Positions 1 through 12,034 of a stretch of 12,034 bases of DNA are shown here, one piece after another. A program made the translations under genes and the position numbers. Every line of letters begins with the position of its first letter. Within the stretch, counting starts at the first letter, position 1. Where the stretch lies: positions 1 to 12,034 of the forward strand of contig JAPDJY010000041.1 of the NCBI GenBank assembly GCA_029258835.1. The letters are read 5' to 3'. The stretch comes from Thermoproteota archaeon. Its GTDB lineage: Archaea; Asgardarchaeota; Jordiarchaeia; Jordiarchaeales; Freyrarchaeaceae. The notes beneath the pieces are model-generated. The model was not told where the DNA came from, did no database searches, and saw nothing but the letters and a program-made list of their open reading frames with translations.

Positions 1-719
1 GGGATGGCAAACTAAAATCAGCATCAAACCAAACAAACAATACCTGGAAGTAAACCTAGCAAGGTACGGCTACCTGCCAAAGGACTTCAACACCACCGGA
101 GGACTACTGACAGAAAACAGGCTCATAGTCAACTTCAAGAGAGAAGTGGAAGGCGCCGAACCGAGGGGCCGGGCCTCATTCGACGTAAACCTGGCCAACG
201 TGACAGCCCCGACCAACGGGAAGGTGGTCAAGTACGACCTCAGGCAGCCACACCACATCCACAGGGCCTACGAGGAAAAGAGGAGAAGAATACAGAAGCT
301 ATCCAAGCGCAAGCCTAAAGTAGCTGAGAGGCTCATGCAAAAATACTCCAGGAGGGAGAGGAACAGGGCCAAAGACCTCATGCACAAGCTAACAGCCAGT
401 AGCCAAGGAGCTCAAGGAGCTACGTAGCGGCGCGCTACTCGAGGACCTGAGGGGCATCAAGGGCAGGGTCCTCAACGGGGGCAAAGGAATCAGCCGCAGG
501 CTTTCAGAGTGGAACGCAAGAACATTCCAGCTCATGCTCGAACACAAGCTGAAGTGGGCTGGATTACCTGTAAAGTACGTTAACCCGTCCTACTCTTCCA
601 GGACGTGCCCCCTCTGTTCTGGCCGCATGGCGGCCTATGAGGGCAGACTAATGCGATGCAAAGAATGCTGTTTGGTTCTTGATAGGGATGTTGCTGCTGT
701 CCTGAACCTTCGGATGTAG
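1..719 (+). pseudogene. tnpB: RNA-guided endonuclease TnpB, 5'-truncated by the window and frameshifted
   Basis: The frame starting at 2 gives RuvC-I SFDVN and the helical 'KYSRRERNRAKDLMHK' segment. After a shift at ~398 the next frame reads VAKELKELRSGALLEDLRG (RuvC-II E), zinc ribbon CPLC...CKEC and RuvC-III DRDVAAVLNL, then TAG at 717-719. The frame stays open beyond this to TGA 825-827. A further -1 shift near position 15 is possible (DGKLK/ISIKP). Confidence 0.92.
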
Positions 720-832
720 GGCTCTGGGGTTCCCCCGAAAGCCCTAATAGAGGTGTACGCCTCGATGATGGGGAAACGCCTGATAGACCAAAACACACAT
801 CTACCCATAAAAGCCTATCAAGCGTGAACCCC
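1..832 (+). mobile_element. IS200/IS605-family (tnpB-bearing) element, 3' part; left end lies outside the window
   Basis: TnpB reading frames run from the window edge. They are followed by a hairpin-rich region ending at GAACCCC (826-832), after which the sequence switches abruptly to the middle of an unrelated gene (ESDLLVYVN...). The exact right end is uncertain within about 829-832. Confidence 0.8.
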
Positions 833-850
833 GAGAGCGACCTGCTAGTT
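717..850 (+). ncRNA. Putative TnpB omega/reRNA scaffold plus flank-derived guide
   Basis: Stems: TAGGGCT(717-723)/AGCCCTA(740-746); GAGGT(750-754)/GCCTC(759-763); ACGCCTGATAG(776-786)/CTATCAAGCGT(815-825, one mismatch). Loop sequence GGGGTTC(726-732) is complementary to terminal GAACCCC(826-832). Position at the tnpB 3' end/right end matches known omega-RNAs. Boundaries are approximate. Confidence 0.6.
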
Positions 851-1840
851 TACGTTAACGTAACGTTCACCCCTATGAACGGGGGTTGGAAGTCGGTCGT
901 GTGGGCCTCGCCTCCTACGAGTCGATAAGCTGCCATCATAACCCAGAAGTCTTCGGCTGGAACATTATGGAACCTGAAAAGTCTGAAATGCACAGGATCC
1001 TGTGGAGGATGGGCGGCGTGGTGGAGAAGAACCTTAGGATTTTCCAGGTTGAAACGGTCGTGGCGAACGTTCTCTAGCCAAGCCTATCAATAGTTGGCGG
1101 CGGCCGTCTCCGGTCGCCCTTAACCTTGAAGGCTTTCTCCCTCCTACCCGGAGGCCTGAGAAACTGGGCTAGGGGTAGGGTGAGGGCAGCCTACAGGATG
1201 GCATACGTTAAGGCTGGAAGCGTCGGGGGGTTCACGGGGAAACCCTGAAAACCCTGAGGAGGCACTTGAACTAGAGGTTAGAGAACAGTTTGACGTGGTG
1301 GTCTTAGGCGTCCCTAACATGAGCCCATACAGCGCGTTCTCCATCCAAAACCCTATCCTCTCGGCCAACTTGGCCCTAGGGTACGCCTACGGGTTCCTCA
1401 GCGTTGGGAAGCCACTCCTTAGAAAAAGCGGGGTGGTGGTTTTCTTCAGCCCGATGGACGAGGTCTTCCATGAGGGCCACCACCCATCATACTTAGAGTT
1501 CTACAAGCTTCTGGGTGAAACACGTGACCCATGGGAGCTACGCGAAAGGTATGAAAGGAGGTTCGCCGAGGACGAGCGTTACGTCAAGCTGTACAGGTAT
1601 GGATACGCGTATCACGGAGCGCACCCCTTCTTCGTGTGGTACGCTATCAGGCCAGCCTTAGAGCAAGCTTCAGCTGTAATAAACGTCAGCCCCGTGAACC
1701 CTAGGGTTCCGGAGAAGCTCGGCTTCGAATGGGCAAGGAGCTTGGACGAGGCACTGGAGAAAGCATACGGTTACGTTGGGAGGGATGCAAGCATAGCTTA
1801 CCCCGCTATGCCACCCATCTTCTGTACTCGTGTCAAGTGA
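833..1840 (+). pseudogene. Lactate racemase (LarA/DUF2088) domain protein, C-terminal portion, interrupted and frameshifted
   Basis: Stitched translation: ESDLLVYVNVTFTPMNGGWKSV / VGLASYESISCHHNP...IFQVETVVANVL*PSL...KAGSV / VHGETLKTLRR / LELEVREQFDVVVLGVPNMSPYS...HHPSY...YGYAYHGAHPF. -1 shifts at ~900, ~1225-1230 and ~1264, and in-frame TAG at 1075-1077. The motifs resemble the long LarA-domain subfamily as recalled. The N-terminus is missing at the IS junction. Confidence 0.75.
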
Positions 1841-1847
1841 GCCTCCA

Positions 1848-2492
1848 CTACTTCTCCCAGCAGCTTTTAGCCCAGTAGGCGTTCCAGTAGGCCGTGTAGA
1901 GTGCGCCGGCGGGGTTGTGCGAGAGCACCCTATCCTTCGCTATGAGGGTCGTAACGGGCGCGTCGGAGAACTTTGTGAACACTGCGTCGTGGCCTACGCA
2001 TAGCCCTACGATTATGTTTAAATCCGTCTTTTGCTCGTTGAGGTAGAGCGCTTGGGCGACTGGGTTGCACGCGACATCGCCTATGAAGTATCCTGTCTTC
2101 GACGAGCCACTATACTCCTCTGGAACCCCAATGTCCTTTTTGAGGAACCCCCCTGTTTTGCACATTATCGTAACGACTTCGAACCCGTGCTCCCTTAGAA
2201 TCCTCGAAACGGCCTCAGCCTCGCTCTGTAAGCCTATGCAGAACGCCACTCCAAGCCTCTTGTATCCCATCAGCCTAGCGAACTCTATGGTGTCCTTGAG
2301 GCGGGGCCACTGCATGTACCCCGAAGCCTCGATGATGGCGGCGTTAACGGCGATCCTCCTAGCCTCCTCATCTTCCTCATAGATCCTCCTAGCCTCCTCA
2401 TAGACAGCCTTACTGGTCACCATTGGGCAGTCACGGGGGCGGTCGGGGCTACCTGTAACGCACGAAATCTTCCTGCAGCTCGCACAGTTCAA
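1848..2492 (-). CDS. DUF1847 family Cys-rich putative metal-binding protein
   Basis: Motifs GVAFCIGL, MCK, CNPVAQA, GLCVGHD, APVTTLIAKDRVL-HNP and N-terminal CxxC-x4-C...CP. Start placed at TTG 2492 (MNCASC) behind SD-like GGTGGTGG. The ORF track extends it to 2507. Confidence 0.88.
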   Translation of the reverse strand: MNCASCRKISCVTGSPDRPRDCPMVTSKAVYEEARRIYEEDEEARRIAVNAAIIEASGYMQWPRLKDTIEFARLMGYKRLGVAFCIGLQSEAEAVSRILREHGFEVVTIMCKTGGFLKKDIGVPEEYSGSSKTGYFIGDVACNPVAQALYLNEQKTDLNIIVGLCVGHDAVFTKFSDAPVTTLIAKDRVLSHNPAGALYTAYWNAYWAKSCWEK

Positions 2493-2675
2493 GCAAACCA
2501 CCACCAAAACGGGAAACTATGCAGCTTTTCCAAGCTATATCTTCAAAATCGGAGCAAGGTTTATTTAACTTTTTTTAACTTTTGCCGGTTTAAAAGCCGG
2601 GTTGAAAGCCGCCCCTCCACCCTTCCCCTTCCTCCACCCATTAATCCCGGATGTGAACATTTCTTAAAGGGAATG

Positions 2676-3767
2676 TTACGTTAAGCCTTCCTTAGCGTAG
2701 AGTTCAAGAACCTCGTCCACAGCCTCCTTAAGCCCCTTCTCCCTAGACATTTTTTTGAGTTCTCTCAGTACGACAGCTGAAACGATTCCTTTTAGGGCAT
2801 GTACCTTCACTACTTCCAGCACATCCCTCAATAACTTCCTGTCAGGGGTCCTGAGGAGAGGAGCGATAGCCTTTAAAGCTTCCCTTGAAACGAACCCTCT
2901 GAACGAGTACTCCATTAGGGCTAGGGCTGCAGCCCTCTTAACCTCAACGCTTGGATCGTTTAACGCCTCTATCAGCATCCTGAAAACCTCCTCTGAAACC
3001 ACGTTTTTATCCGCGTAGGCGGCTAACGCCATCACAATGCTTCTCCTAGCCTGGCTATCCTCTTCCTCTCTAAGAGCGTCCTTCATCAGCTCAAAGGCAG
3101 AACGTGAAACATGCCCCTTCTCGGCGTAAGCCATAAGCATGCTTGCAGCGCTACTCCTAACGGTTGAGCTACTTGCACGCAGTAGCAACTCTACATCCCT
3201 AAGGACGCCTACATCTAGGAGACCCCTATCGGCGTAGGCTGCCAGGGCCAACGCCACCCCGCCTCTAACCTCAAGGCTCCTATCATCTCTTAACAGCCTA
3301 AGAAGCTGCCTGAACGCTTCCCGCGAAACATAGCCATTCAGGGCGTAGACCATAGCAGCCAGCGCCGCGTTTCTCCTAACGTTAGAGTTTGAATCCCTCA
3401 GGAAGTCCTCTAGCTTTTCCAGCAGCTTCTCCGAGTGAACCCCTTCTACAAGGTGGTTCCTAATAGCTGCGATGGCATCACACTTAACATCAGGGTCCTC
3501 CTCCACGAGAAACCCTTCCAACAGGGGAACCGCCCCCTCGCTCATAAACCCCCGTTCAACGTAGGCCCTCACAGCCCTTAGAGCACTCCTCCTAACCCTC
3601 CCGTCGGGATCCTTTAAAAGCCCCACCAGCCTCTCGAATGCTTCAGGGGCTGTCACACCCTCAGACGCCTTCTTCGCTATTGCCTCGATCGAACTCTTCC
3701 TAACCCAAGGGTTCCTATCATCAAGCAAACCTATTAAACGTTTCAAGTTTCCCCCCAACAAAACCAT
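2676..3767 (-). CDS. HEAT-repeat (alpha-solenoid) protein
   Basis: About ten 36-37 aa repeats of pattern L--LL-D----VR--A--A---Y---G--S----. Start uncertain (ATG 3767, TTG 3746 or 3794). Confidence 0.88.
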   Translation of the reverse strand: MVLLGGNLKRLIGLLDDRNPWVRKSSIEAIAKKASEGVTAPEAFERLVGLLKDPDGRVRRSALRAVRAYVERGFMSEGAVPLLEGFLVEEDPDVKCDAIAAIRNHLVEGVHSEKLLEKLEDFLRDSNSNVRRNAALAAMVYALNGYVSREAFRQLLRLLRDDRSLEVRGGVALALAAYADRGLLDVGVLRDVELLLRASSSTVRSSAASMLMAYAEKGHVSRSAFELMKDALREEEDSQARRSIVMALAAYADKNVVSEEVFRMLIEALNDPSVEVKRAAALALMEYSFRGFVSREALKAIAPLLRTPDRKLLRDVLEVVKVHALKGIVSAVVLRELKKMSREKGLKEAVDEVLELYAKEGLT

Positions 3768-3783
3768 GCAACCTTTCTCTCTG

Positions 3784-3830
3784 TTAAAAAACAAGAAATA
3801 AAAACATAAATGTTTTTTAATGTTTTTTAA
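3784..3830. promoter_or_regulatory. AT-rich direct/inverted repeat cluster upstream of the HEAT gene (promoter/operator candidate)
   Basis: TTAAAAAACA (3784-3793) is the reverse complement of TGTTTTTTAA, which occurs twice in tandem (3811-3820, 3821-3830). AAAAACAT(3800-3807)/ATGTTTTT(3810-3817) forms an inner inverted repeat. Confidence 0.45.
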
Positions 3831-3965
3831 ACAACCCTATGCTCCTTGAGGGCTTCCAACAAAGGTTCGGTTTGAGTACAATGCAAGAGGATCGTTATCT
3901 TTTAACGTTGTCTATTTAACCTTCTGGTCGGCTGCTCAGATCAAGTGATGCTTCTCTCCTTAGGG

Positions 3966-5363
3966 TTACTCCACTGGTACGAGCTCTGTCCTAATATGTT
4001 CCCTTGAATCGTCTACTGTTATCGCATAGAACATGGTTGAGGGCTCCTTCCCCTGGATCAACGTTACACCGTTAACGTTTTTCATCTCAAAGTGTACGTC
4101 AGCTGTATGGAGAAGTGTGCCAACGTTTCTTTGTCCTTGCTTTATGACGAGTATTACGCTGTGCTTAACTGCCCGTAAAGTTATAATGAGCCTAGCGACC
4201 ATGTCCAGCATGTCCTCGGATCCATAAACGTGCTCTAAGGTGTCAGTAGATATGAACATTATACCTCCTTTTGAGGCTGCCTCCGTAGATATGATGTTCC
4301 TTATCTGTTCTAAGTCTTTACTTGGATCGTCCCCCTCAAGAACGTAGATGTTCCTTCCTTTTCCCACCTTATGCTCCGCGAACTGTATAATGTGAACATA
4401 GCTTTTTAATTCATGGACACGTTCTTCGAATGGCTGGAAGGAATTCCTAACGTCAATCCACGAAAAGCCTCCAGAGGGTATCATGAAAACAGGATGTCCT
4501 TGCCTTACAGCGTTTAGGAAAAACGGGATTAACACCCATCTATAGTCTACTCTAACGTCCTCCCCTACTTCTAAGGCAACCACCCATCCCTTCCTAACTC
4601 CCCCTCCAAGAGCTCTATCCAGCTCGTCTACGGTTGTGGGTATAACTTCACCCTTCACTCCCCTAATGGGAGGTGGCTCCGCTCTTTCCGGCATTACATA
4701 CTGGCTTGGCTCTAGTACGGTGAACCGTCCATCCTTCAGAGTGAACAAGCGTGACGGGAACTTTATCCTTTTACCCCTAATTTTCTCGAGAAGGATCTCT
4801 CTAATGAAGAACCCGTCGATCAGCCTCCTGTTTAACGTGACGATCCCATCCACTATGTATTCCAAGTTGCTTTCACGCGTCCCCTCTAATACTAAAACTA
4901 TGCTTGAAGACGTTGCCTCAGCCATTTCAAGCAGTAACTTCTCGATTTGAAGGTCTTCTGGCCGGGTCTTCAAGTTAAACTTTAACGCGTCCAAACTGTC
5001 TATTACAGCCACTTTAGGCTCCCCTTTCCTCTTCAACTTAACGTAAAGCACCTCCATGAACTCTGGTGCACTAGCATACTTAAGTGGAGGGCGCTCCCCC
5101 TTCTCTGGAACTACTTGAGGCGCTCTGGCGTCTATGAACATCTCATCAGACAGCACATCCCTAACCCATGGAAAATACTTATAGAATAATTCACGTGAAG
5201 TCCTCGTTGAAACGTACACGCAAGTCCCCTCTTTAAACTCTTCAATAATGGAAAGCGTAAAAGCAGTCTTTCCACCCCCCGGAACCCCCTTCACCAGCAG
5301 CGAAGCTCCTTCTCTAAGGACATCCATCAACTCTTCCGGGACTCTTACCAAGCGACTGAGCAT
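3966..5363 (-). CDS. KaiC/RAD55-superfamily two-domain ATPase, GvpD P-loop-like
   Basis: Walker A GVPGGGKT, YVSTR, Walker B AVIDSLD, EYIVDGIVTL, EKIRG. The second RecA-like domain begins IPTTVDELDRALGGG and has a degenerate P-loop. ATG 5363 follows SD-like GGTGGT (alternative ATG 5378). Confidence 0.85.
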   Translation of the reverse strand: MLSRLVRVPEELMDVLREGASLLVKGVPGGGKTAFTLSIIEEFKEGTCVYVSTRTSRELFYKYFPWVRDVLSDEMFIDARAPQVVPEKGERPPLKYASAPEFMEVLYVKLKRKGEPKVAVIDSLDALKFNLKTRPEDLQIEKLLLEMAEATSSSIVLVLEGTRESNLEYIVDGIVTLNRRLIDGFFIREILLEKIRGKRIKFPSRLFTLKDGRFTVLEPSQYVMPERAEPPPIRGVKGEVIPTTVDELDRALGGGVRKGWVVALEVGEDVRVDYRWVLIPFFLNAVRQGHPVFMIPSGGFSWIDVRNSFQPFEERVHELKSYVHIIQFAEHKVGKGRNIYVLEGDDPSKDLEQIRNIISTEAASKGGIMFISTDTLEHVYGSEDMLDMVARLIITLRAVKHSVILVIKQGQRNVGTLLHTADVHFEMKNVNGVTLIQGKEPSTMFYAITVDDSREHIRTELVPVE

Positions 5364-5542
5364 TATACCACCAAACATTAATCATACTTCATCATTTTTC
5401 AGTAATAACTTAAACTATTAAAATTTTTTAATGGAGATGAGGTAGGGGAGTAACTTTTAGATAACGCGTTGAGGCTTCCCTCCGATGAGTATATTAACTT
5501 TAATCCACGAAAATTCTAACCATACTTGAAGGAGGACGCGTA

Positions 5543-6850
5543 ATGCCTCGAACGGATGAAAGCTACGAAGAACTAATGTTCAGTTATGTGAGGGAGATTT
5601 GTGGAAGGTTCGGCCCTCGGGAGCCATGCTCTCCCGCAGAGATAAATGCGTCGAATAGAACCAAGGAGATACTGGAAAATTACTGCGACTCGGTCGAAGT
5701 TGAAGAGTACTATTGTCACCCTAAGGGATTCCTAGGATACATACGGTGGTTCATATGGTTTTACGCCGTCGCATTGCTTTTCTACTGGAGTGACTGGGCC
5801 TGGTGGATCGGCCTAAACCCTGCAGACCTCTGGCCTCTCTCGGGGGTAGGAGCCGCCCTCATAGCCTTCGCCTTCCTAGTTTTGTTTCTTCAGTTGATGT
5901 ACCTTGCAGAGTTCGTTGATCCCGTTTTTCCGAAGGGTCTCTCTCAAAACTTGATATGTAAACTGAAGCCTAAAGGTAGAGCTGAACGCCTAGTTCTCCT
6001 AGGGGCGCACATAGACTCGGCCTACGAGTTCACCCTTTCAAGCGTGCTCGGCTTCGGAGCATACGTAATGATGGTTTTAGCCATACTGTCATCAGTAGCG
6101 CTCATGACGGCCTCGGCTTTAAAATGCGCCTGCACGCTCTTTTTCGGCTATCCAACACTCTCCCCGCCGACGCCGATAAGAAGTTTTAACTTTGCGCTTT
6201 ACTGGCTAACCTTTACGTTGAAGCCGGCTTTCATGACGATTGACCCGATGCTCGTAGTCTGGATTATCGGCGGATTCTTCGTGTTTCTCGTCTCGTACTT
6301 CTTTGTCAACATGAGAAAAGTGGTCTTAGGGGCGAATGATGACCTTGCCGGAGTAGCGGCTCTAATAGGCGCCGCAAAATATCTCTCCCAGAACAGGCCA
6401 AAGAGAACAGAGGTTTGGATAGTCGTCTTCGGCAACGAGGAGTCCATGAGAGGATCTAAGAGGTTCGTGGAGAAGCACCGTGAAGAGCTAGCTAGAAGGC
6501 GGGCATACACGGTGAACATTGAAATGGTGGGGTGCAGCAGCCCCTTAATCGCCGCGAAGGCTGAGCCGATGTTCCTAACCAAGCACGCGCCAGAAGTCTA
6601 CAACCTGCTGGTCGAAGCAGGGGAGAAAGCGGGGATCCCTGTTAAAAGCGAGGTGGTACCTTTCGGAGGCTCGGACTCGGCTAACTTCTCACGTAAAAAG
6701 CTGCTGGCATCACAGCTAGTCCGGCTCGGAAGGGAGACAGCATCCCTATGGCACACTCCGAGGGACACTCTTGAAAATGTAGACCCGAAGAGAATCAGGG
6801 AGGCACTAGAAGTAATACTCGAGTTCGTAAACCTCGTAGACCAGAAATAA
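5543..6850 (+). CDS. M28 family metallopeptidase with inserted transmembrane segments
   Basis: Metal-binding/catalytic motifs GAHIDS, GANDDLAG, GNEES, NIEMVG, GSDS, WHT--D. Four long hydrophobic stretches lie within the domain. GGAGG SD precedes the ATG. Confidence 0.88.
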   Translation: MPRTDESYEELMFSYVREICGRFGPREPCSPAEINASNRTKEILENYCDSVEVEEYYCHPKGFLGYIRWFIWFYAVALLFYWSDWAWWIGLNPADLWPLSGVGAALIAFAFLVLFLQLMYLAEFVDPVFPKGLSQNLICKLKPKGRAERLVLLGAHIDSAYEFTLSSVLGFGAYVMMVLAILSSVALMTASALKCACTLFFGYPTLSPPTPIRSFNFALYWLTFTLKPAFMTIDPMLVVWIIGGFFVFLVSYFFVNMRKVVLGANDDLAGVAALIGAAKYLSQNRPKRTEVWIVVFGNEESMRGSKRFVEKHREELARRRAYTVNIEMVGCSSPLIAAKAEPMFLTKHAPEVYNLLVEAGEKAGIPVKSEVVPFGGSDSANFSRKKLLASQLVRLGRETASLWHTPRDTLENVDPKRIREALEVILEFVNLVDQK

Positions 6851-6859
6851 CCACCCCCC

Positions 6860-6876
6860 ATTTTTTAACTTTTAAA
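6860..6876 (+). terminator. Possible archaeal oligo-T terminator after the peptidase gene
   Basis: ATTTTTTAACTTTTAAA starts ~10 nt after the stop codon. It may overlap promoter elements for the next gene. Confidence 0.4.
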
Positions 6877-6941
6877 TGTCCCCCGTTTACAATCCTTTGA
6901 ATGAGAAACCCTTTTCTCCCCTGTTAACGTAGAATTTTTGG

Positions 6942-7721
6942 GTGTCCACGTTGAAAGTTTACATCGTGGCTGTTGGGGACGAGCTCCTCTCCGGTCGGGT
7001 ACTAGACTACAACACCCACTGGATTGCTAAGCGCCTGTCAGGGGTGGGCTTCAACATTGCAGGCGCGTCCATCGTCCCAGACGATAAGGAGGAGATAGTT
7101 GAAGCTGTTAGAAGGGCCCTGTCCAAAGCCGATTTAACCGTTATAACTGGGGGGCTGGGCCCCACCCCAGGAGACATAACGCTTGAAGCGTTAGCTGAAG
7201 CGCTAAACCGTAACCTTTCCCTCAACGATGATGCCTTGGAAATGGTTAAGGATCGATATAGGGAGCTGTACGAAGTAGGGCATATTAAAACCTTGGAAAT
7301 GACCCCTGAGAGGGAGAAGATGGCACGCATACCCGAAGGCGGAACCCCAATATTCAACGCCGTTGGAATAGCACCCGGCGTCATGGTGGAGCACCAAGGC
7401 AAGGTGGTTCTCGCCCTTCCAGGAGTGCCATCCGAAATGATGTACCTTCTCGAGAAGGCGCTTCCCAGCCTTGAAAGGATGAGTGGGCCGGTCTTTGTAA
7501 GCGTGGAGGACACCGTAGACGTAGGGGATGAATCAGTCATCGCCCGCGCCCTAAGAGAGGTTATGGCCGAGTTCCCCGAAGTATCCATTAAATCCTACCC
7601 GTCAGGCTTCGGGGGGAAAGTGAAAATGAGAATCATAGCTTCGATGAAAGCTGAGGATAGGGAAGGCGCTGGTAAACATCTAAGAGAAGCCATAAGAAAG
7701 TTGAAAGAAAAGCTAGTGTAA
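6942..7721 (+). CDS. CinA-like molybdopterin-binding-fold protein (COG1058-type; stand-alone, no PncC domain)
   Basis: VGDELLSG-V-D-N, ITGGLGPT, APG and LPGVP-EM motifs, plus C-terminal ES-IA...SIKSYP domain. Start GTG 6942 or TTG 6951. Confidence 0.87.
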   Translation: MSTLKVYIVAVGDELLSGRVLDYNTHWIAKRLSGVGFNIAGASIVPDDKEEIVEAVRRALSKADLTVITGGLGPTPGDITLEALAEALNRNLSLNDDALEMVKDRYRELYEVGHIKTLEMTPEREKMARIPEGGTPIFNAVGIAPGVMVEHQGKVVLALPGVPSEMMYLLEKALPSLERMSGPVFVSVEDTVDVGDESVIARALREVMAEFPEVSIKSYPSGFGGKVKMRIIASMKAEDREGAGKHLREAIRKLKEKLV

Positions 7722-7963
7722 AAAGGCAGCACTTCCCTCTCCCTCCACGTGAACGCTAAAAAATCCCCTTTCTTCCACGTTTCCATCCGAGAAATACACC
7801 TTAAAACGACCCAGCCATCACTATAGCACCTCTTAAGCTCCCTCAGCAAACATAAAACATTATCAACTCTTTCTCTTCCCAAGATGGGAGGCCATTCGTG
7901 CAGTTCTGCAAGCCCACACACTCCCTAACTTCGTCATTTAGCGTAAACCCATCAGCACCCCTA

Positions 7964-7979
7964 CCAAAAGGTTTTTAAA
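7964..7979 (+). promoter_or_regulatory. BRE/TATA-like promoter of the small membrane protein gene
   Basis: Purine-rich CCAAAAGG followed by TTTTTAAA (7972-7979), ~50 nt upstream of ATG 8031. SD AAGGAGG at 8013-8019. Confidence 0.55.
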
Positions 7980-8030
7980 TGCTCTCTAAATCCTTCACCA
8001 AACAAGTCGGTAAAGGAGGAGAATAGAAAA

Positions 8031-8414
8031 ATGTCGAGACCAGCTGGAGTAACCCTGCTAGGCGTCCTATACATCATCATGGCAATCATCTACATCATCG
8101 GCGGCCTCGTAGGCTTCCTACTGACTTCTCCGCTCGGCGGCCTATTCGGTCCAACGCCAATCTTCAGTGGGGCCATGGCAATAGTGCCAATAGTCATCGG
8201 CATTATCGACTTGGTGATCGGCTGGGGTCTGCTCTCCCTTAAGGGCTGGGCTAGGATACTAGCCATAGTCTTCGCCATCCTAGGACTACTCGGAGGACTA
8301 GCATCACTAATAGCATTCCCGATAGGGACGATAATCGGCATCATCGAGATCATCCTAAGCATCATCATACTATGGTACCTCTTCAAGCCAGAAATCGCCA
8401 GCGTATTCGAGTAA
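8031..8414 (+). CDS. Small integral membrane protein (about 4 TM helices), function unknown
   Basis: 127 aa, nearly all hydrophobic. Pattern RP-GVT-L...GWGL--LKGWAR...IILWYL-KPE----F is typical of a conserved archaeal hypothetical membrane family. Strong SD. Confidence 0.85.
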   Translation: MSRPAGVTLLGVLYIIMAIIYIIGGLVGFLLTSPLGGLFGPTPIFSGAMAIVPIVIGIIDLVIGWGLLSLKGWARILAIVFAILGLLGGLASLIAFPIGTIIGIIEIILSIIILWYLFKPEIASVFE

Positions 8415-8448
8415 ACCTACCGACGCCAGAAACACATCAATCATTACC

Positions 8449-8473
8449 ATTTTTACTTCCCAATTTTTTATTT
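8449..8473 (+). terminator. Oligo-T terminator region between convergent genes
   Basis: Runs ATTTTT and AATTTTTTATTT downstream of the 8414 stop codon. Confidence 0.4.
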
Positions 8474-8494
8474 AACGTTCCTTTTTAGTGCCCA

Positions 8495-9808
8495 TTACAC
8501 CATGTCGTTTCTTATTAGGTCGTCGAAGTTTTCCCTTCTTCTAATCAATTTAACACTGCTTCCTGATAGTAGCACCGCTGCCGGGCGTGGCCGCCCATTG
8601 TACTGCGACATTTGCTCTAACGTGTATGCTCCCACGTCCAGTATTGCGAGGTATTCTCCGGGTTTGACGCCATGTGGGAGGAACCTGTAACGTGGAAGCG
8701 CTCCCCGGGGGTCGAGGAGGGCGTCTCCACCGTCGCATAGAGGTCCTCCTATCACGTATGGCTCCCTGTGCTCCTCTCCCGCCCTGCTGGCGGATACTAC
8801 GTGGAAGTACCATTTATAGCTGAAAGCGTCCAGTAGTACGTTGAACCCTGAATCTATAAGCAGCCATTTTTCACCATTTCTCTCCTTAACGTTCTGGACC
8901 TGGGTTAGTAGCACCGCTGAGTCACCTACTATTCTGCGTCCGGGCTCGACGATTAAGCGTGCATTCTCAAGGTTCTCCCTAACAACCCTTTTAACCCTTA
9001 ACGCCACCTCGTGGACGTCGAGCTGGGCGTAGAAGTACTCTGGCAGCTCCTTAACCGGCATCTTAGCGTAGGGGATCGGGAAACCACCACCCATGTTGAA
9101 CTCTAACATTTCAAATCCAACCTTTCTCTCCACCCTTCGCGCCTCCCTGCTAACCCTTCTCACCCCCTCCTCAAAGACCTCAACGCGTGGAACCTGCGAT
9201 GCCACGTGGCAATGCACTCCTATGGGGTTCACCCCGTCGCCTTTAAACGCCTCCCTGTAAGCTTCCTCCATCTCATCCAAGGTAATGCCAAACTTCGAAG
9301 AGGGGGTGGCCGTCTCAAAGCCAACGTGGGTTCCGGCCAGAACGCCGGAGGCAACCCTGAAAGCGACGTTAACCTCCCCCCCGAAATCCCTGACGACGTC
9401 CCTCAGCCTTCTCAACTCGTACAAGGAGTCCAAATTGACGCAGTGCACCCCATACTCCACAGCCATCCGAAGCTCTCCAACCGTTTTAGCAACACCGTTA
9501 AAAACAACTTGCTCTGGTCTGAACCCCGCCTTAAGGGCCTTAAACAGCTCCCCGTCACTAGTAACCTCAACGTTAACCCCCAACCCTCTTATAATCCTCA
9601 GTATAGCCAGGTTAGAGTTGGCCTTACACGCGTAGAAAACATTCTCCCTACCGAAAGCGTCGGCGACCTCCTCAACGTTCCTCCTTATCCTCTCCTCCGA
9701 GAAAACGAAGAGAGGCGTCCCATACCCATCAGCTAACCCAATCAAATCCACACCGTAAAAATGCAGCCTTCCTCCCTCAACGCTCAGACCATCACCGTAA
9801 TGCATCAT
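8495..9808 (-). CDS. Fold-type III PLP-dependent basic amino acid decarboxylase (diaminopimelate decarboxylase family; DokD-like)
   Basis: YACKAN (PLP lysine), FNG-AK, SKFG, HCHVASQ, NMGGGF, EPGR, GPLCDGGD, GAY, YNGRPRPA. Start ATG 9808 or 9805 behind SD GGAGGTGG. Confidence 0.9.
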   Translation of the reverse strand: MMHYGDGLSVEGGRLHFYGVDLIGLADGYGTPLFVFSEERIRRNVEEVADAFGRENVFYACKANSNLAILRIIRGLGVNVEVTSDGELFKALKAGFRPEQVVFNGVAKTVGELRMAVEYGVHCVNLDSLYELRRLRDVVRDFGGEVNVAFRVASGVLAGTHVGFETATPSSKFGITLDEMEEAYREAFKGDGVNPIGVHCHVASQVPRVEVFEEGVRRVSREARRVERKVGFEMLEFNMGGGFPIPYAKMPVKELPEYFYAQLDVHEVALRVKRVVRENLENARLIVEPGRRIVGDSAVLLTQVQNVKERNGEKWLLIDSGFNVLLDAFSYKWYFHVVSASRAGEEHREPYVIGGPLCDGGDALLDPRGALPRYRFLPHGVKPGEYLAILDVGAYTLEQMSQYNGRPRPAAVLLSGSSVKLIRRRENFDDLIRNDMV

Positions 9809-10073
9809 GCTCCACCTCCACACTCACAGAGAAAACACACACGGTCATATCGTTTACTCCCTTTTGAGAAACCAAACCGTCAAATGAAAAGTACCCTTAC
9901 GCAAATTTTTAAGGCTGCAAAACAATTTATAGTAAATTTCCAGAAATTCATTTCTACCCCGTCCACTTTTTTAATGGTGCCCGGTGACGGAGCACTCTCT
10001 CACGGGCGCATCCGCGTTAAAAACCTTTTATTTGCCTGTAGTTCACTTTGACCTTGGAAATGGAGGTGTGCCC

Positions 10074-11504
10074 GTGGACCTTAAGAGGATCTTCGAGCCT
10101 AAGAACATCGCAGTAGTGGGGGTTTCCAGCAGGTTTACGAATCCGGGAACAGTCATATTCAACAAGAACCTTCACGAAATGGAGGCAAACACGTACGGTG
10201 TGAACCCCAAAGGCGGCGTGATAGAAGGCCGGGAAATATACAAGAGGGTGAGCGATATACCAGTCGACTTAGACCTCGCCATAATAGCGATCAGGGCGGA
10301 ATACGTTAACCAGGTGGTTGAGGAGTGCGGTGAGATCGGCGTAGGCGGGGTGGTCGTGGTGTCAGGGGGCTTCGCTGAGGCAGGAGGGGAAGGCGTTGAA
10401 AGGCAGAGGAGACTGACTGAAATAGCATGCAAGTACGACATGCCGGTTATAGGCCCCAACTGCTTCGGAATATACAGTCCACCCTACGTTGACACGTTCT
10501 TCCTTCCAAGCGAAAGAATGGTTAAGCTGCCGCCGGGGAACATAGCGATAGTCAGCCAGAGCGGCGGCTTCATGGTCGACCACTTCTTCTCAAGGTTCTA
10601 CGAGAGGAACCTCGGAGTATCCGTGGCCGTCGGCGTGGGAAACAAGGCTGTAGTGGACGAAGCAATGATACTAAAATACCTCGAAAACGACCCGAGGACA
10701 AAAACCATCTCACTTTACGTTGAAGGCTTCAGGGAGGGAGAAGGATCAAGGTTCCTTGAGGCGGCGAGAGAGTGCGCTGAGAAGAAAACGGTCCTTGTCT
10801 ACAAGGCTGGCAGAACCGAGACGGCTAAACGCGCCGTCTCCTCGCACACCGGGCTGATGGCGACCTCGTCAAGGCTCTTCTCGGCAGCCCTCAGGCAAAA
10901 CGGGATAGTTGAAGCGGAGAACGAAGACGAAATAATAAACTTCGCCAAGGTTTTCTCGTTCGACCTGAAACCCATAGAGAGGGGCAACGTGGCGATAATG
11001 ACGATCTCCGGCGGCCACGGCGTCATATGCGCCGACCTGTGCATCGAAGCAGGACTAAGGCTCGTCGAGATGACCGAGGAGGAACAGGAGGAGCTCAGGT
11101 CAAGGCTGCAGCCCTCTGCAGCCCTCGTAGCCTCCCTTAAAAACCCAATAGACCTAACGGGGAGCGCGACAGACGTGGACATGGAAAACACCCTAATATA
11201 CCTACTCGAGAGGGAAGACGTGGACGCAGTCATAATTCTAACCTTCCCGTATCCTCCAGCAATCTCGATGCAGATCGGGAGGCGCCTCTCAAACATAGCA
11301 GCCATGTACGATAAGCCGGTTGTCGCCCACACCCCTTGGCTGCCAAAGTACCAAATGATAGTTGAAGGCTTCGAGTACAACGGCGTCCCAGTCGCCCACA
11401 CAATAGAAGACGTCGTGCAGATGGTCAAGGCACTATACAAGAAAGGACAGATAATGAAGTTAATGTCCGAGAAAGCAGCCTCAGCCACGCAAAAAGTGGA
11501 GTGA
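10074..11504 (+). CDS. Acyl-CoA synthetase (ADP/NDP-forming) alpha subunit, acetate--CoA ligase family
   Basis: CoA-binding Rossmann start IFEPKNIAVVGVS, VNPK, SGGFAE, IGPNCFG, SQSGG, GNK, phospho-His motif SSHTG, SGG-G and NPIDLTG. No ATP-grasp domain. GTG 10074 follows SD GGAGGTG, so the ORF-track start at 9984 is probably over-extended. Confidence 0.9.
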   Translation: MDLKRIFEPKNIAVVGVSSRFTNPGTVIFNKNLHEMEANTYGVNPKGGVIEGREIYKRVSDIPVDLDLAIIAIRAEYVNQVVEECGEIGVGGVVVVSGGFAEAGGEGVERQRRLTEIACKYDMPVIGPNCFGIYSPPYVDTFFLPSERMVKLPPGNIAIVSQSGGFMVDHFFSRFYERNLGVSVAVGVGNKAVVDEAMILKYLENDPRTKTISLYVEGFREGEGSRFLEAARECAEKKTVLVYKAGRTETAKRAVSSHTGLMATSSRLFSAALRQNGIVEAENEDEIINFAKVFSFDLKPIERGNVAIMTISGGHGVICADLCIEAGLRLVEMTEEEQEELRSRLQPSAALVASLKNPIDLTGSATDVDMENTLIYLLEREDVDAVIILTFPYPPAISMQIGRRLSNIAAMYDKPVVAHTPWLPKYQMIVEGFEYNGVPVAHTIEDVVQMVKALYKKGQIMKLMSEKAASATQKVE

Positions 11505-11734
11505 ACCCCTAAACTTAAAGCGGGCCAAACCCCCACACCTTTCTCCCCGCAAGCACCTAGGTTAAGGCCGCATCAAATTTTCGCTTCTCCCCCTTCCTAG
11601 GATCGGAAGCGTTGTTCACAGGTTTTCCCCGGTGCCCCAGTTCTCGTACACGCTGAATATACGCTGAAGAAAGCTCATAATGCCCTTCATGCTTCCAGTT
11701 AAGGGTCAGAACCCGCAAATTAGGATTTTCGAAA

Positions 11735-11764
11735 TACTATATAGAAAAGAAAATTTATATAGTA
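11735..11764 (+). promoter_or_regulatory. BRE/TATA promoter of the acyl-CoA ligase gene with overlapping inverted repeat
   Basis: GAAAAGAAAA followed by TTTATATA (11754-11761). Perfect 9-bp inverted repeat TACTATATA(11735-11743)-N12-TATATAGTA(11756-11764). Confidence 0.6.
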
Positions 11765-11814
11765 ACATATCTACTAGTAAGGTTGCAGTGCGTGGTTTGG
11801 ATGGGAGGGTGTCT

Positions 11815-12034
11815 ATGAGCGTTTTAAAGGGTTTCCCAAGCACCATGATGGACGACTACCAGCTAAACCTGATAAAAATCCTGGAAAGGGCTGTAACGTA
11901 CTTTGGAAGGAAAGAGGTCGTTTCTAGGAGGATTAGTGATGGGGGCATTTTCCGCTACACGTACAAGGACGCTTGGGAGAGGGTTCAGAAGGCAGCCAAC
12001 TTCCTGGTGGAGGAGCTGGAGGTTAAGCCGGGAG
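11815..12034 (+). CDS. Medium/long-chain fatty-acid--CoA ligase (AMP-forming, AlkK-like), 3'-truncated by the window
   Basis: Not in the ORF track. Reads MSVLKGFPSTMMDDYQLNLIKILERAVTYFGRKEVVSRRISDGGIFRYTYKDAWERVQKAANFLVEELEVKPG, open to the window end, a characteristic N-terminus of this family. SD GGGAGGGTG upstream. Confidence 0.82.
   Translation, partial: MSVLKGFPSTMMDDYQLNLIKILERAVTYFGRKEVVSRRISDGGIFRYTYKDAWERVQKAANFLVEELEVKPG

Follow-up and report, generated by a model that had tools for sequence, protein, structure and literature searches.

The 12,034-nucleotide stretch analysed here (contig JAPDJY010000041.1, positions 1 to 12,034, hereafter the window) belongs to an archaeon of the Asgard order Jordarchaeales and carries a gene for a pyridoxal 5'-phosphate (PLP)-dependent decarboxylase that automatic pipelines would call lysA, the gene of meso-diaminopimelate (DAP) decarboxylase. 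This label is very probably wrong and the protein very probably not LysA. It is a member of a branch of the DAP decarboxylase (DAPDC) lineage that resembles DokD, the D-ornithine/D-lysine decarboxylase of Salmonella, but it is not demonstrably DokD, because it fails the cut-off of the DokD equivalog, lacks the operon and varies among its orthologues at the position of DokD Tyr430. In the genomes of its family the DAP route to lysine is missing, and enzymes that consume agmatine are present in the absence of any known type of arginine decarboxylase (ADC). The gap that the window enzyme would best fill is therefore agmatine supply rather than D-amino-acid catabolism.

Residue replacements in the distal pocket

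A first-pass annotation, made from the sequence alone, had suggested a DokD-like enzyme beneath the lysA label. Translation bore out all the motifs that it quoted, each in its place (DSLYEL, HVASQVP, LLDAFSYKWYFH, GPLCDGGD and GAYTLE; Table 1), and the resemblance to DokD that it had pointed out held equally: the motifs align with DokD column for column in the phmmer alignment to PDB 6n2h. The register of this alignment is valid because counting along it reproduces the published positions C387 and Y430. The catalytic apparatus is complete: besides Lys62, the predicted Schiff-base lysine, it retains His199/His201, Cys358 and both phosphate loops, EPGR and GGG.

The R-P-x-x-Y helix usual in DAPDCs is indeed lacking. 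Within the specificity helix LLDAFSYKWYFH, of which residues 326–330 are helical in an AlphaFold2 model, Asp327 takes the place of the distal Arg. Asp occupies this position in the window protein and all 6 orthologues, while nearly all canonical LysA rows read R-P-x-x-Y. Phillips and colleagues reportedly described in 2019 how the Arg of this motif serves as partner to the distal, L-centre carboxylate group in DAP, and how a change from Arg to Asp turns the distal DAP site into a site for basic side chains, both in DokD and in an L-lysine/ornithine decarboxylase. The following loop, C358-D359-G-G-D362, aligns with C387-D388-G-G-D of DokD; canonical LysA has C-E-S/T-G-D. Tyr430 of DokD marks the position of the proposed acid catalyst for inversion at the D-centre, which is Phe in L-ornithine decarboxylases. 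Its equivalent is Tyr in the window protein and in P0003 and Phe in P0004, P0005, P0006 and P0007 (4/6 orthologues).

Among 150 representatives of 50%-identity clusters, the DokD-like motif set (D, E or S for the Arg of RPxxY, CD[GS]GD and W-Y-F/Y) and the canonical LysA set (RPxxY, CE[ST]GD and GAYG) separated cleanly. The motifs of the window protein are thus not a chance pattern.

Profile scores, solved relatives and fold

The first-pass annotation had foreseen an automatic lysA label, and such a label would arise because the protein passes the cut-off of the NCBIfam lysA equivalog TIGR01048 (377.2 bits, cut-off 297.9); its orthologues are all deposited as diaminopimelate decarboxylase. The second match, the DokD equivalog NF052544, failed with 327.5 bits against a cut-off of 700. 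This model was built around enterobacterial sequences, and an acidobacterial relative fails it too, with 353 (352.7) bits on the DokD model and 345 bits on the lysA model. Bona fide Asgard LysA reached 420–432 bits on the lysA model and 186–211 bits on the DokD model. On the speA model the window protein scored 43.6 bits against a cut-off of 624, and by sequence it belongs to none of the known ADC families (PdaD, SpeA, the AAT-fold type and the type resembling S-adenosylmethionine decarboxylase (SAMDC)).

A phmmer search of the PDB returned Salmonella DokD 6n2h at the top (268.8 bits), compared with 246.5 bits for LysA of M. jannaschii. In a fold search with the AlphaFold2 model (pLDDT 91.8), 15 DokD chains came first (TMq 0.90–0.93) and DAP decarboxylases reached 0.80–0.89, a modest margin that discriminates weakly. 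Sequence identity amounts to 34–35% with DokD and 33–35% with LysA. The DokD-like identity proposed in the first pass was borne out by sequence, fold, key residues and tree position; a DokD-type operon is lacking, and the equivalog cut-off of 700 was missed by a wide margin.

Distribution and phylogeny

The closest homologues, at 65–69% identity, come from metagenome-assembled genomes (MAGs) of Candidatus Jordarchaeales/Freyarchaeota/Jordarchaeum. The host is therefore an Asgard archaeon, in agreement with the archaeal origin assumed at the outset. The next homologues, at ~45% identity, are bacterial (Acidobacteriota of the Blastocatellia and Pyrinomonadaceae, Chloroflexota and Clostridia), and several of them were named D-ornithine/D-lysine decarboxylase by JGI. 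Across 40 related Asgard genomes, orthologues occurred only in the window's family (4/4, plus the window's genome); the protein of the sister family is 22–26% identical and those of other Asgard lineages are 31–36% identical. The pattern of the GPLCD[GS]xD loop was matched by at least 600 GTDB species genomes.

A maximum-likelihood tree of 83 rows was inferred with IQ-TREE (LG+C20 PMSF, quick search), in which Salmonella DokD was represented by the proxy P0142, a close DokD relative with 554 bits to 6n2h. The 4 archaeal sequences grouped together (support 100) inside a 32-row DokD-like clade that includes P0142 (SH-aLRT 99), and canonical LysA, including the E. coli and Asgard proteins, formed a separate clade of 46 rows (98). 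Union of the archaeal clade with Asgard LysA was rejected by the approximately unbiased (AU) test (delta lnL 219, p 8.8e-5), which excludes vertical descent from Asgard LysA. Membership in the DokD-like clade is the best tree, though the tree by itself does not prove it. Rather than nesting within a single phylum, the archaeal branch stands as sister to a wide range of bacteria. Together with an unremarkable GC content (53% for the gene, 51% for the window), this position would fit an old transfer.

In 40 of 79 bacterial loci surveyed, mostly from Acidobacteriota, the next gene downstream of the decarboxylase on the same strand encodes an APC-family amino-acid permease (median gap ~190 bp), an arrangement that resembles a decarboxylase–transporter module such as the Salmonella dokD operon. 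Neither polyamine genes nor racemase genes were found beside the decarboxylase in these 79 loci. In the Pyrinomonadaceae, two Amidohydro_1/3 genes lie divergently upstream of the DokD-like gene. Contexts in the diverse DokD-like clade are heterogeneous and include a permease, an MFS protein, a glutamate-synthase-like gene and a DapF-like gene. At one bacterial locus (L123:925-3502), the DokD-like gene P0126, whose product has a distal Glu, starts within the end of a gene for a 422-aa DAP_epimerase-family protein, so that the two overlap. In this pair a DapF-like racemase could feed a D-amino-acid decarboxylase, or the subclade could act on a DAP-related substrate.

Lysine biosynthesis in the host genome

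The window's genome (2.72 Mb in 91 contigs, 94.7% complete) holds the window decarboxylase as its sole LysA-like gene. DapB and DapF were found neither there nor in the 4 other genomes of the family (0/5). A DapA-like gene, flanked by lipoate-ligase and IOR genes, scored 204.6 bits and so fell narrowly short of its cut-off (206.15). As a positive control, another Asgard family (f9) has dapF-lysA-dapB clusters with a canonical LysA.

Two LysW-type clusters are present in the window's genome. One comprises LysW, LysX, ArgC/LysY, LysZ, LysJ and LysK. The cluster on contig C4 comprises LysW, LysX, ArgC, LysZ and LysK without LysJ and converges on a carbamoyltransferase gene, for which the top model is N-acetylornithine carbamoyltransferase (381 bits, cut-off 288). 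With two complete LysW clusters, lysine and ornithine therefore have a route independent of LysA. The choice between a LysW and a DAP route, raised earlier as a check, thus falls to LysW, and no source of meso-DAP is apparent in the genome.

Agmatine consumers and the missing arginine decarboxylase

TiaS uses agmatine to form agmatidine in tRNA-Ile2, and to our knowledge every archaeon with TiaS depends on agmatine. The window's genome encodes a TiaS homologue that matches over its full length (472 bits, E 1e-141), along with 2 agmatinases above the TIGR01230 cut-off, an aminopropyltransferase above that of NF002010 and a SAM decarboxylase above that of TIGR03330. Known routes to agmatine were sought in 11 genomes of the order, 5 from the window's family and 6 from the sister family (f2); the latter represent one genus and count as one observation. 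PdaD (PF01862) was found in 0/11, as were AAT-fold decarboxylases, and the speA model matched only the orthologues of the window gene in the window's family and an orphan decarboxylase in the sister family. AdoMet_dc is present in one copy per genome, so there is no SAMDC-like ADC paralogue. A gene that had passed for ADC-like proved to be a member of the acetoacetate-decarboxylase family PF06314 and not an arginine decarboxylase. The pathway consequently has a hole in these genomes: consumers of agmatine are present, and known ADC types were not found. A literature search on Jordarchaeia and polyamines found nothing relevant.

In other Asgard genomes PdaD directly adjoins an agmatinase. In the sister family, the orphan decarboxylase, which has an alanine-racemase fold, forms part of a block that encodes a Ras-GTPase, the decarboxylase, Nnr, a CxxC protein, the agmatinase, a radical-SAM protein and an ACT protein; the window's family has the same agmatinase block minus the decarboxylase. 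The part common to both families (loci L116, G000 C3:43000-54500, and L109) contains Nnr (YjeF), a radical-SAM activase, an ACT-domain protein and a Ras-family small GTPase. In the window's genome, the genes close to this block include those for NDK and a TIP49/RuvBL-like ATPase.

The orphan family (P0269–P0291) is archaeal-only and has no characterised member; its sources list it as hypothetical protein or as diaminopimelate decarboxylase (family). It occurs in Freyarchaeota/Jordarchaeum, Lokiarchaeia, Theionarchaea, Atabeyarchaeum and Njordarchaeum. It scores below the lysA cut-off, has partial SpeA-like matches and is a candidate short-form archaeal arginine decarboxylase. The simplest reading of this gene content would be that in each family the lone orphan decarboxylase of the alanine-racemase fold supplies agmatine or a diamine.

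Proposed function and its rivals

We propose that the window enzyme is a dimeric PLP decarboxylase of the alanine-racemase fold (fold III), from the DokD-like branch of the DAPDC lineage, whose distal pocket has been converted. Where the Arg of LysA holds the L-aminocarboxylate end of meso-DAP, the window enzyme presents the acidic residues Asp327 and Asp359, much like DokD and ornithine decarboxylases. Such a pocket should therefore bind a cationic side chain, be it guanidinium or ammonium, and would suit Arg, Orn or Lys alike. Release of CO2 from a basic amino acid would yield agmatine, putrescine or cadaverine, which TiaS, the two agmatinases and the pair of aminopropyltransferase and SAM decarboxylase could consume. 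The enzyme is the only candidate for a basic-amino-acid decarboxylase in this Jordarchaeales family and would functionally replace the orphan decarboxylase of the sister family. Guanidinium fits this type of pocket, since PDB entry titles list DokD crystals with D-arginine, agmatine and 4-guanidinobutanal.

A role in agmatine or diamine supply, with arginine as the likeliest physiological substrate, is accordingly the explanation that we put forward, as plausible though somewhat short of probable. It corresponds to the alternative of polyamine supply or another substrate that the first-pass annotation had left beside D-amino-acid catabolism, and which is the part of that reading we favour. More doubtful is the fuller scenario in which an enzyme of the DokD/DAPDC lineage took on the housekeeping decarboxylation of arginine in one Asgard family, making agmatine for tRNA-Ile2 agmatidine and for polyamines, and displaced the f2-type orphan after an old bacterial transfer. 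A housekeeping role would call for L-Arg, and hence for a stereospecificity other than that of DokD and DAPDC. The DAPDC-derived enzymes FigC, SbnH, BtrK and MccE use L-substrates (PMC7857480).

Several observations weigh against agmatine supply from arginine. The decarboxylase gene adjoins no agmatinase or polyamine gene, either in the window's genome or at related loci. All mappable DokD pocket residues are kept, and no sequence signal is specific for arginine or for an L-substrate; both substrate and stereochemistry are purely what we infer. D-Arg is a slow substrate of DokD, at ~1% of the D-Orn rate, with D-Orn and D-Lys preferred (PMC13294871), and Li et al. 2020 argued that decarboxylases of the DAPDC clade are not polyamine enzymes (PMC7857480). 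The absence of an ADC rests on MAGs that are 73–95% complete in the window's family, and agmatine import is possible. Moreover, the position of P0126 directly after a DAP-epimerase-family gene makes DAP-like substrates conceivable for the clade overall. Finally, the phylogeny suggested as a check gave a divided answer: it favoured the DokD-like clade and rejected the union with Asgard LysA, but the AU test tolerates the archaeal clade in a basal position on the whole LysA side (delta lnL 19.7, p 0.248). The argument is therefore carried by the residue changes and the gene content.

That the enzyme is a true functional DokD, a stereoinverting D-Orn/D-Lys decarboxylase that makes putrescine or cadaverine, was the main idea of the first-pass annotation; it strikes us as less likely than agmatine or diamine supply, but as a serious rival. 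DokD is its closest solved relative by sequence and by fold, the DokD residues Asp356, Cys387, Asp388 and Tyr430 are all matched, the proxy P0142 lies in the same clade as the archaeal sequences, and putrescine or cadaverine could still feed the aminopropyltransferase. These points are set against the failed equivalog (327.5 bits where 700 are needed), an identity of only 34–35%, Phe at the position of the proposed acid catalyst in 4/6 orthologues, and a gene that, unlike the Salmonella operon and 40/79 bacterial loci, has neither a racemase nor an amino-acid transporter beside it. The agmatine need of TiaS and the agmatinases would also be left unexplained. Conceivable sources of the D-amino acids would be cell-wall debris scavenged from bacteria, racemisation by heat or a racemase that has escaped recognition. 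A search for racemases, also raised in the first pass, had a mixed outcome: no fold-III (PF01168) racemase was found in the window's genome, but the genome does encode a class-III PLP enzyme with archaeal racemases among its relatives, so a racemase is possible.

This class-III enzyme (459 aa, G000 C22:28217-29596, equivalent to L126:3218-4597, plus strand) has as its best solved relatives a '4-aminobutyrate aminotransferase' entry from P. horikoshii (7VNO, 262 bits) and then racemases, namely a broad-specificity amino-acid racemase (9WRF, 241 bits) and an Ala/Ser racemase (9WQZ, 217 bits); it scored 279 bits with the LeuMetRace model. Its reaction may be that of a racemase or that of an omega-aminotransferase, with basic amino acids as substrates.

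Another substrate altogether, such as L-ornithine or L-lysine, or else a conjugated or specialised amino acid of the kind used by the siderophore and antibiotic decarboxylases FigC, SbnH, BtrK and MccE, would disconnect the enzyme from agmatine supply, and we regard this as improbable. The DAPDC-derived lineage has repeatedly gained new substrates, including L-configured ones (PMC7857480), and the DokD-like clade combines heterogeneous gene contexts with a single characterised member. No NIS synthetase, carrier protein or ATP-grasp cluster lies beside the gene in the archaeal genomes examined, however, and the two acidic pocket residues suit a simple cationic side chain. Least credible by far is a genuine, divergent meso-DAP decarboxylase. 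Its case consists of the passed TIGR01048 cut-off (377.2 versus 297.9), the lack of a second LysA-like gene in the genome, the DapA-like gene just short of its threshold (204.6 versus 206.15) and the tolerated basal LysA-side position (p 0.248). Yet the Arg for the distal carboxylate is Asp, the CES(G)D loop has exchanged its Glu for Asp and its Ser for Gly, and the AU test rejected union with Asgard LysA. DapB and DapF were not found in 5/5 family genomes, while Asgard archaea with a canonical LysA have dapF-lysA-dapB, the two complete LysW clusters already cover lysine and ornithine, and the DapA-like gene has lipoate-ligase and IOR genes as its neighbours.

Hundreds of bacterial relatives are also labelled diaminopimelate decarboxylase, which amounts to systematic mis-annotation, and metabolic reconstructions that take a gene of the window's type for LysA would credit Asgard archaea with a DAP route in error. 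The window enzyme is a concrete candidate for the arginine decarboxylase that is otherwise unaccounted for in this Asgard order. If agmatine supply from arginine is correct, its identification would close a hole in Asgard central metabolism and bear on the assembly of polyamine pathways in the closest lineage to eukaryotes. In that case the enzyme would also represent a switch from D- to L-substrates in the DokD/DAPDC lineage and a further independent origin of ADC, inside the clade for which Li et al. 2020 saw no role in polyamine metabolism. As a member of the clade from thermophilic archaea with natural Tyr/Phe variation at the proposed acid catalyst, the enzyme offers a test of D versus L specificity in fold-III decarboxylases.

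Gene, locus and other features of the window

The open reading frame of the decarboxylase runs on the minus strand from an ATG at 9808 to a stop codon at 8495-8497, with a GTG at 9823 as an alternative start, and its product contains the Pfam domains Orn_Arg_deC_N and Orn_DAP_Arg_deC. By sequence reading, a Shine-Dalgarno-like GGAGGTG lies 5 nt upstream of the ATG, and the divergent intergenic region contains putative TATA-like, A/T-rich boxes.

Table 1 Positions of the features discussed. Plain numbers refer to the window; G, C and L denote genomes, contigs and loci of the comparison, G000 being the window's genome.
Feature	Position	Strand	Remarks
DokD-clade fold-III PLP decarboxylase gene	8495..9808	-	437 aa
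Lys62, PLP Schiff-base lysine, in ACKANSN	9623..9625	-	Invariant alignment column; aligns with the lysine of DokD and DAPDC
DSLYEL, aa 127-132	9413-9430	-	Translation
HVASQVP, aa 201-207, His201 motif	9188..9208	-	Ala203 where most relatives have Gly
Specificity helix LLDAFSYKWYFH, aa 325-336	8801..8836	-	Alignment and translation
Asp327 codon	8828-8830	-	In place of the distal Arg of DAPDC RPxxY; aligns with DokD Asp356
GPLCDGGD loop, aa 355-362	8723..8746	-	Cys358 = DokD Cys387; Asp359 = DokD Asp388
GAYTLEQMSQYNGRP, GAYTLE segment, aa 393-407	8588..8632	-	Translation
Tyr403 codon	8600-8602	-	Aligns with DokD Tyr430
Divergent intergenic region, decarboxylase/ACD-alpha gene	9809..9983	.	Sequence reading
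ADP-forming acyl-CoA synthetase (ACD) alpha subunit	9984..11504	+	Divergent neighbour
DUF7144-like small protein	8031..8414	+	Convergent neighbour; 26.7 bits, just below cut-off
LysW-type clusters, window's genome	G000 C8:27764-32915; G000 C4:14021-19116
dapF-lysA-dapB clusters, Asgard family f9	G017 C88:41577-44864; G027 C95:5100-8150; G037 C29:3525-6718
Agmatinases, window's genome	Contigs C3 and C48
SpeE, window's genome	Contig C32
SAMDC, window's genome	Contig C6
Orphan alanine-racemase-fold decarboxylase, sister family f2	L109:4783-6138 (G006 C1:988794-990095)	-	452 aa; 2.4 kb from agmatinase

Genes of lysine biosynthesis are absent from the surroundings, as the first-pass annotation had observed; the neighbours instead encode the ACD alpha subunit, the DUF7144 protein, CinA and an M28 peptidase. 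Four other assemblies of the family share the gene order ACD-alpha, decarboxylase, small open reading frame, CinA and M28 peptidase, and the decarboxylase is intact in all genomes of the family with synteny preserved. A small open reading frame at the DUF7144-like position also occurs in related genomes, and ACD-alpha is a conserved neighbour with no evident functional link. The archaeal neighbourhood is conserved yet uninformative on function. Contamination of the MAG (6%) was considered as the origin of the gene and rejected: the contig is syntenic with the 4 other Jordarchaeales assemblies, which rules contamination out as the explanation, and the GC content of the gene is near that of the window.

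Elsewhere in the window, a TnpB/OrfB_IS605 fragment (29.6 bits, below cut-off) lies at the contig edge (positions 2-427). It is followed by a LarA-family open reading frame (1184-1840) whose match covers no more than positions 342-519 of the model, which has 520; the missing N-terminal part was not found in any upstream frame, which makes this frame look like a truncated remnant beside a transposon relic. From 1848 to 5378, a run of genes on the minus strand encodes a DUF1847 protein, a 372-aa HEAT-repeat protein and a GvpD/KaiC-like P-loop ATPase. The ATPase has GvpD_P-loop and GvpD_bR2 domains; gas-vesicle genes are absent from the window.

Comparison with known systems

The nearest known system is DokD (DOKDC) of Salmonella enterica (STM2360; PDB 6N2H, 8D2Y and 9NQ5; NF052544; EC 4.1.1.116). 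Both enzymes are fold-III PLP decarboxylases with Asp in place of the distal Arg of DAPDC, an identical GPLCDGGD loop, and shared GAYT-E, DSLYEL, QVP and W-x-F segments, and the window copy has Tyr at the Tyr430 position. In contrast to DokD, the window protein comes from an archaeal host, is ~40 aa shorter without the DokD insertions, and keeps the Tyr of RPxxY, which is Phe in DokD. The Salmonella dokD operon includes an ornithine racemase and amino-acid transporters (PMC13397332), an operon that the window gene lacks. The genomic setting of the window gene would instead point to agmatine or polyamine supply, a role that has been doubted for DokD itself (PMC7857480).

With LysA (TIGR01048; M. 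jannaschii 1TWI and E. coli 1KNW) the window protein shares the fold, the catalytic core and evidently its ancestry, and it passes the lysA profile. It differs in having Asp for the distal Arg, CDGGD for CESGD and GAYT for GAYG, in its separate clade and in a genome without DapB and DapF. The orphan decarboxylase of the sister family is its likely functional counterpart, the sole enzyme of the alanine-racemase fold in genomes with TiaS, an agmatinase and one SAMDC but no PdaD. That protein is only 22–26% identical, falls in another clade (the outgroup of the tree), reads GITCDSND in the loop and has Phe where DokD has Tyr430.

The pyruvoyl arginine decarboxylase PdaD (PF01862), the usual source of agmatine in archaea, would perform the same physiological job as the one proposed for the window enzyme, with an unrelated fold and cofactor. 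The arginine decarboxylase of chlorovirus PBCV-1 (PDB 2NVA) belongs to the clade of ornithine decarboxylases rather than to DAPDC/DokD, shares ~20% identity with the window protein and acts on an L-substrate with known specificity residues. As a homologue of ornithine decarboxylase repurposed for arginine, it sets the precedent of an ornithine-type pocket in the alanine-racemase fold, with two acidic residues, that was switched to arginine by few changes.

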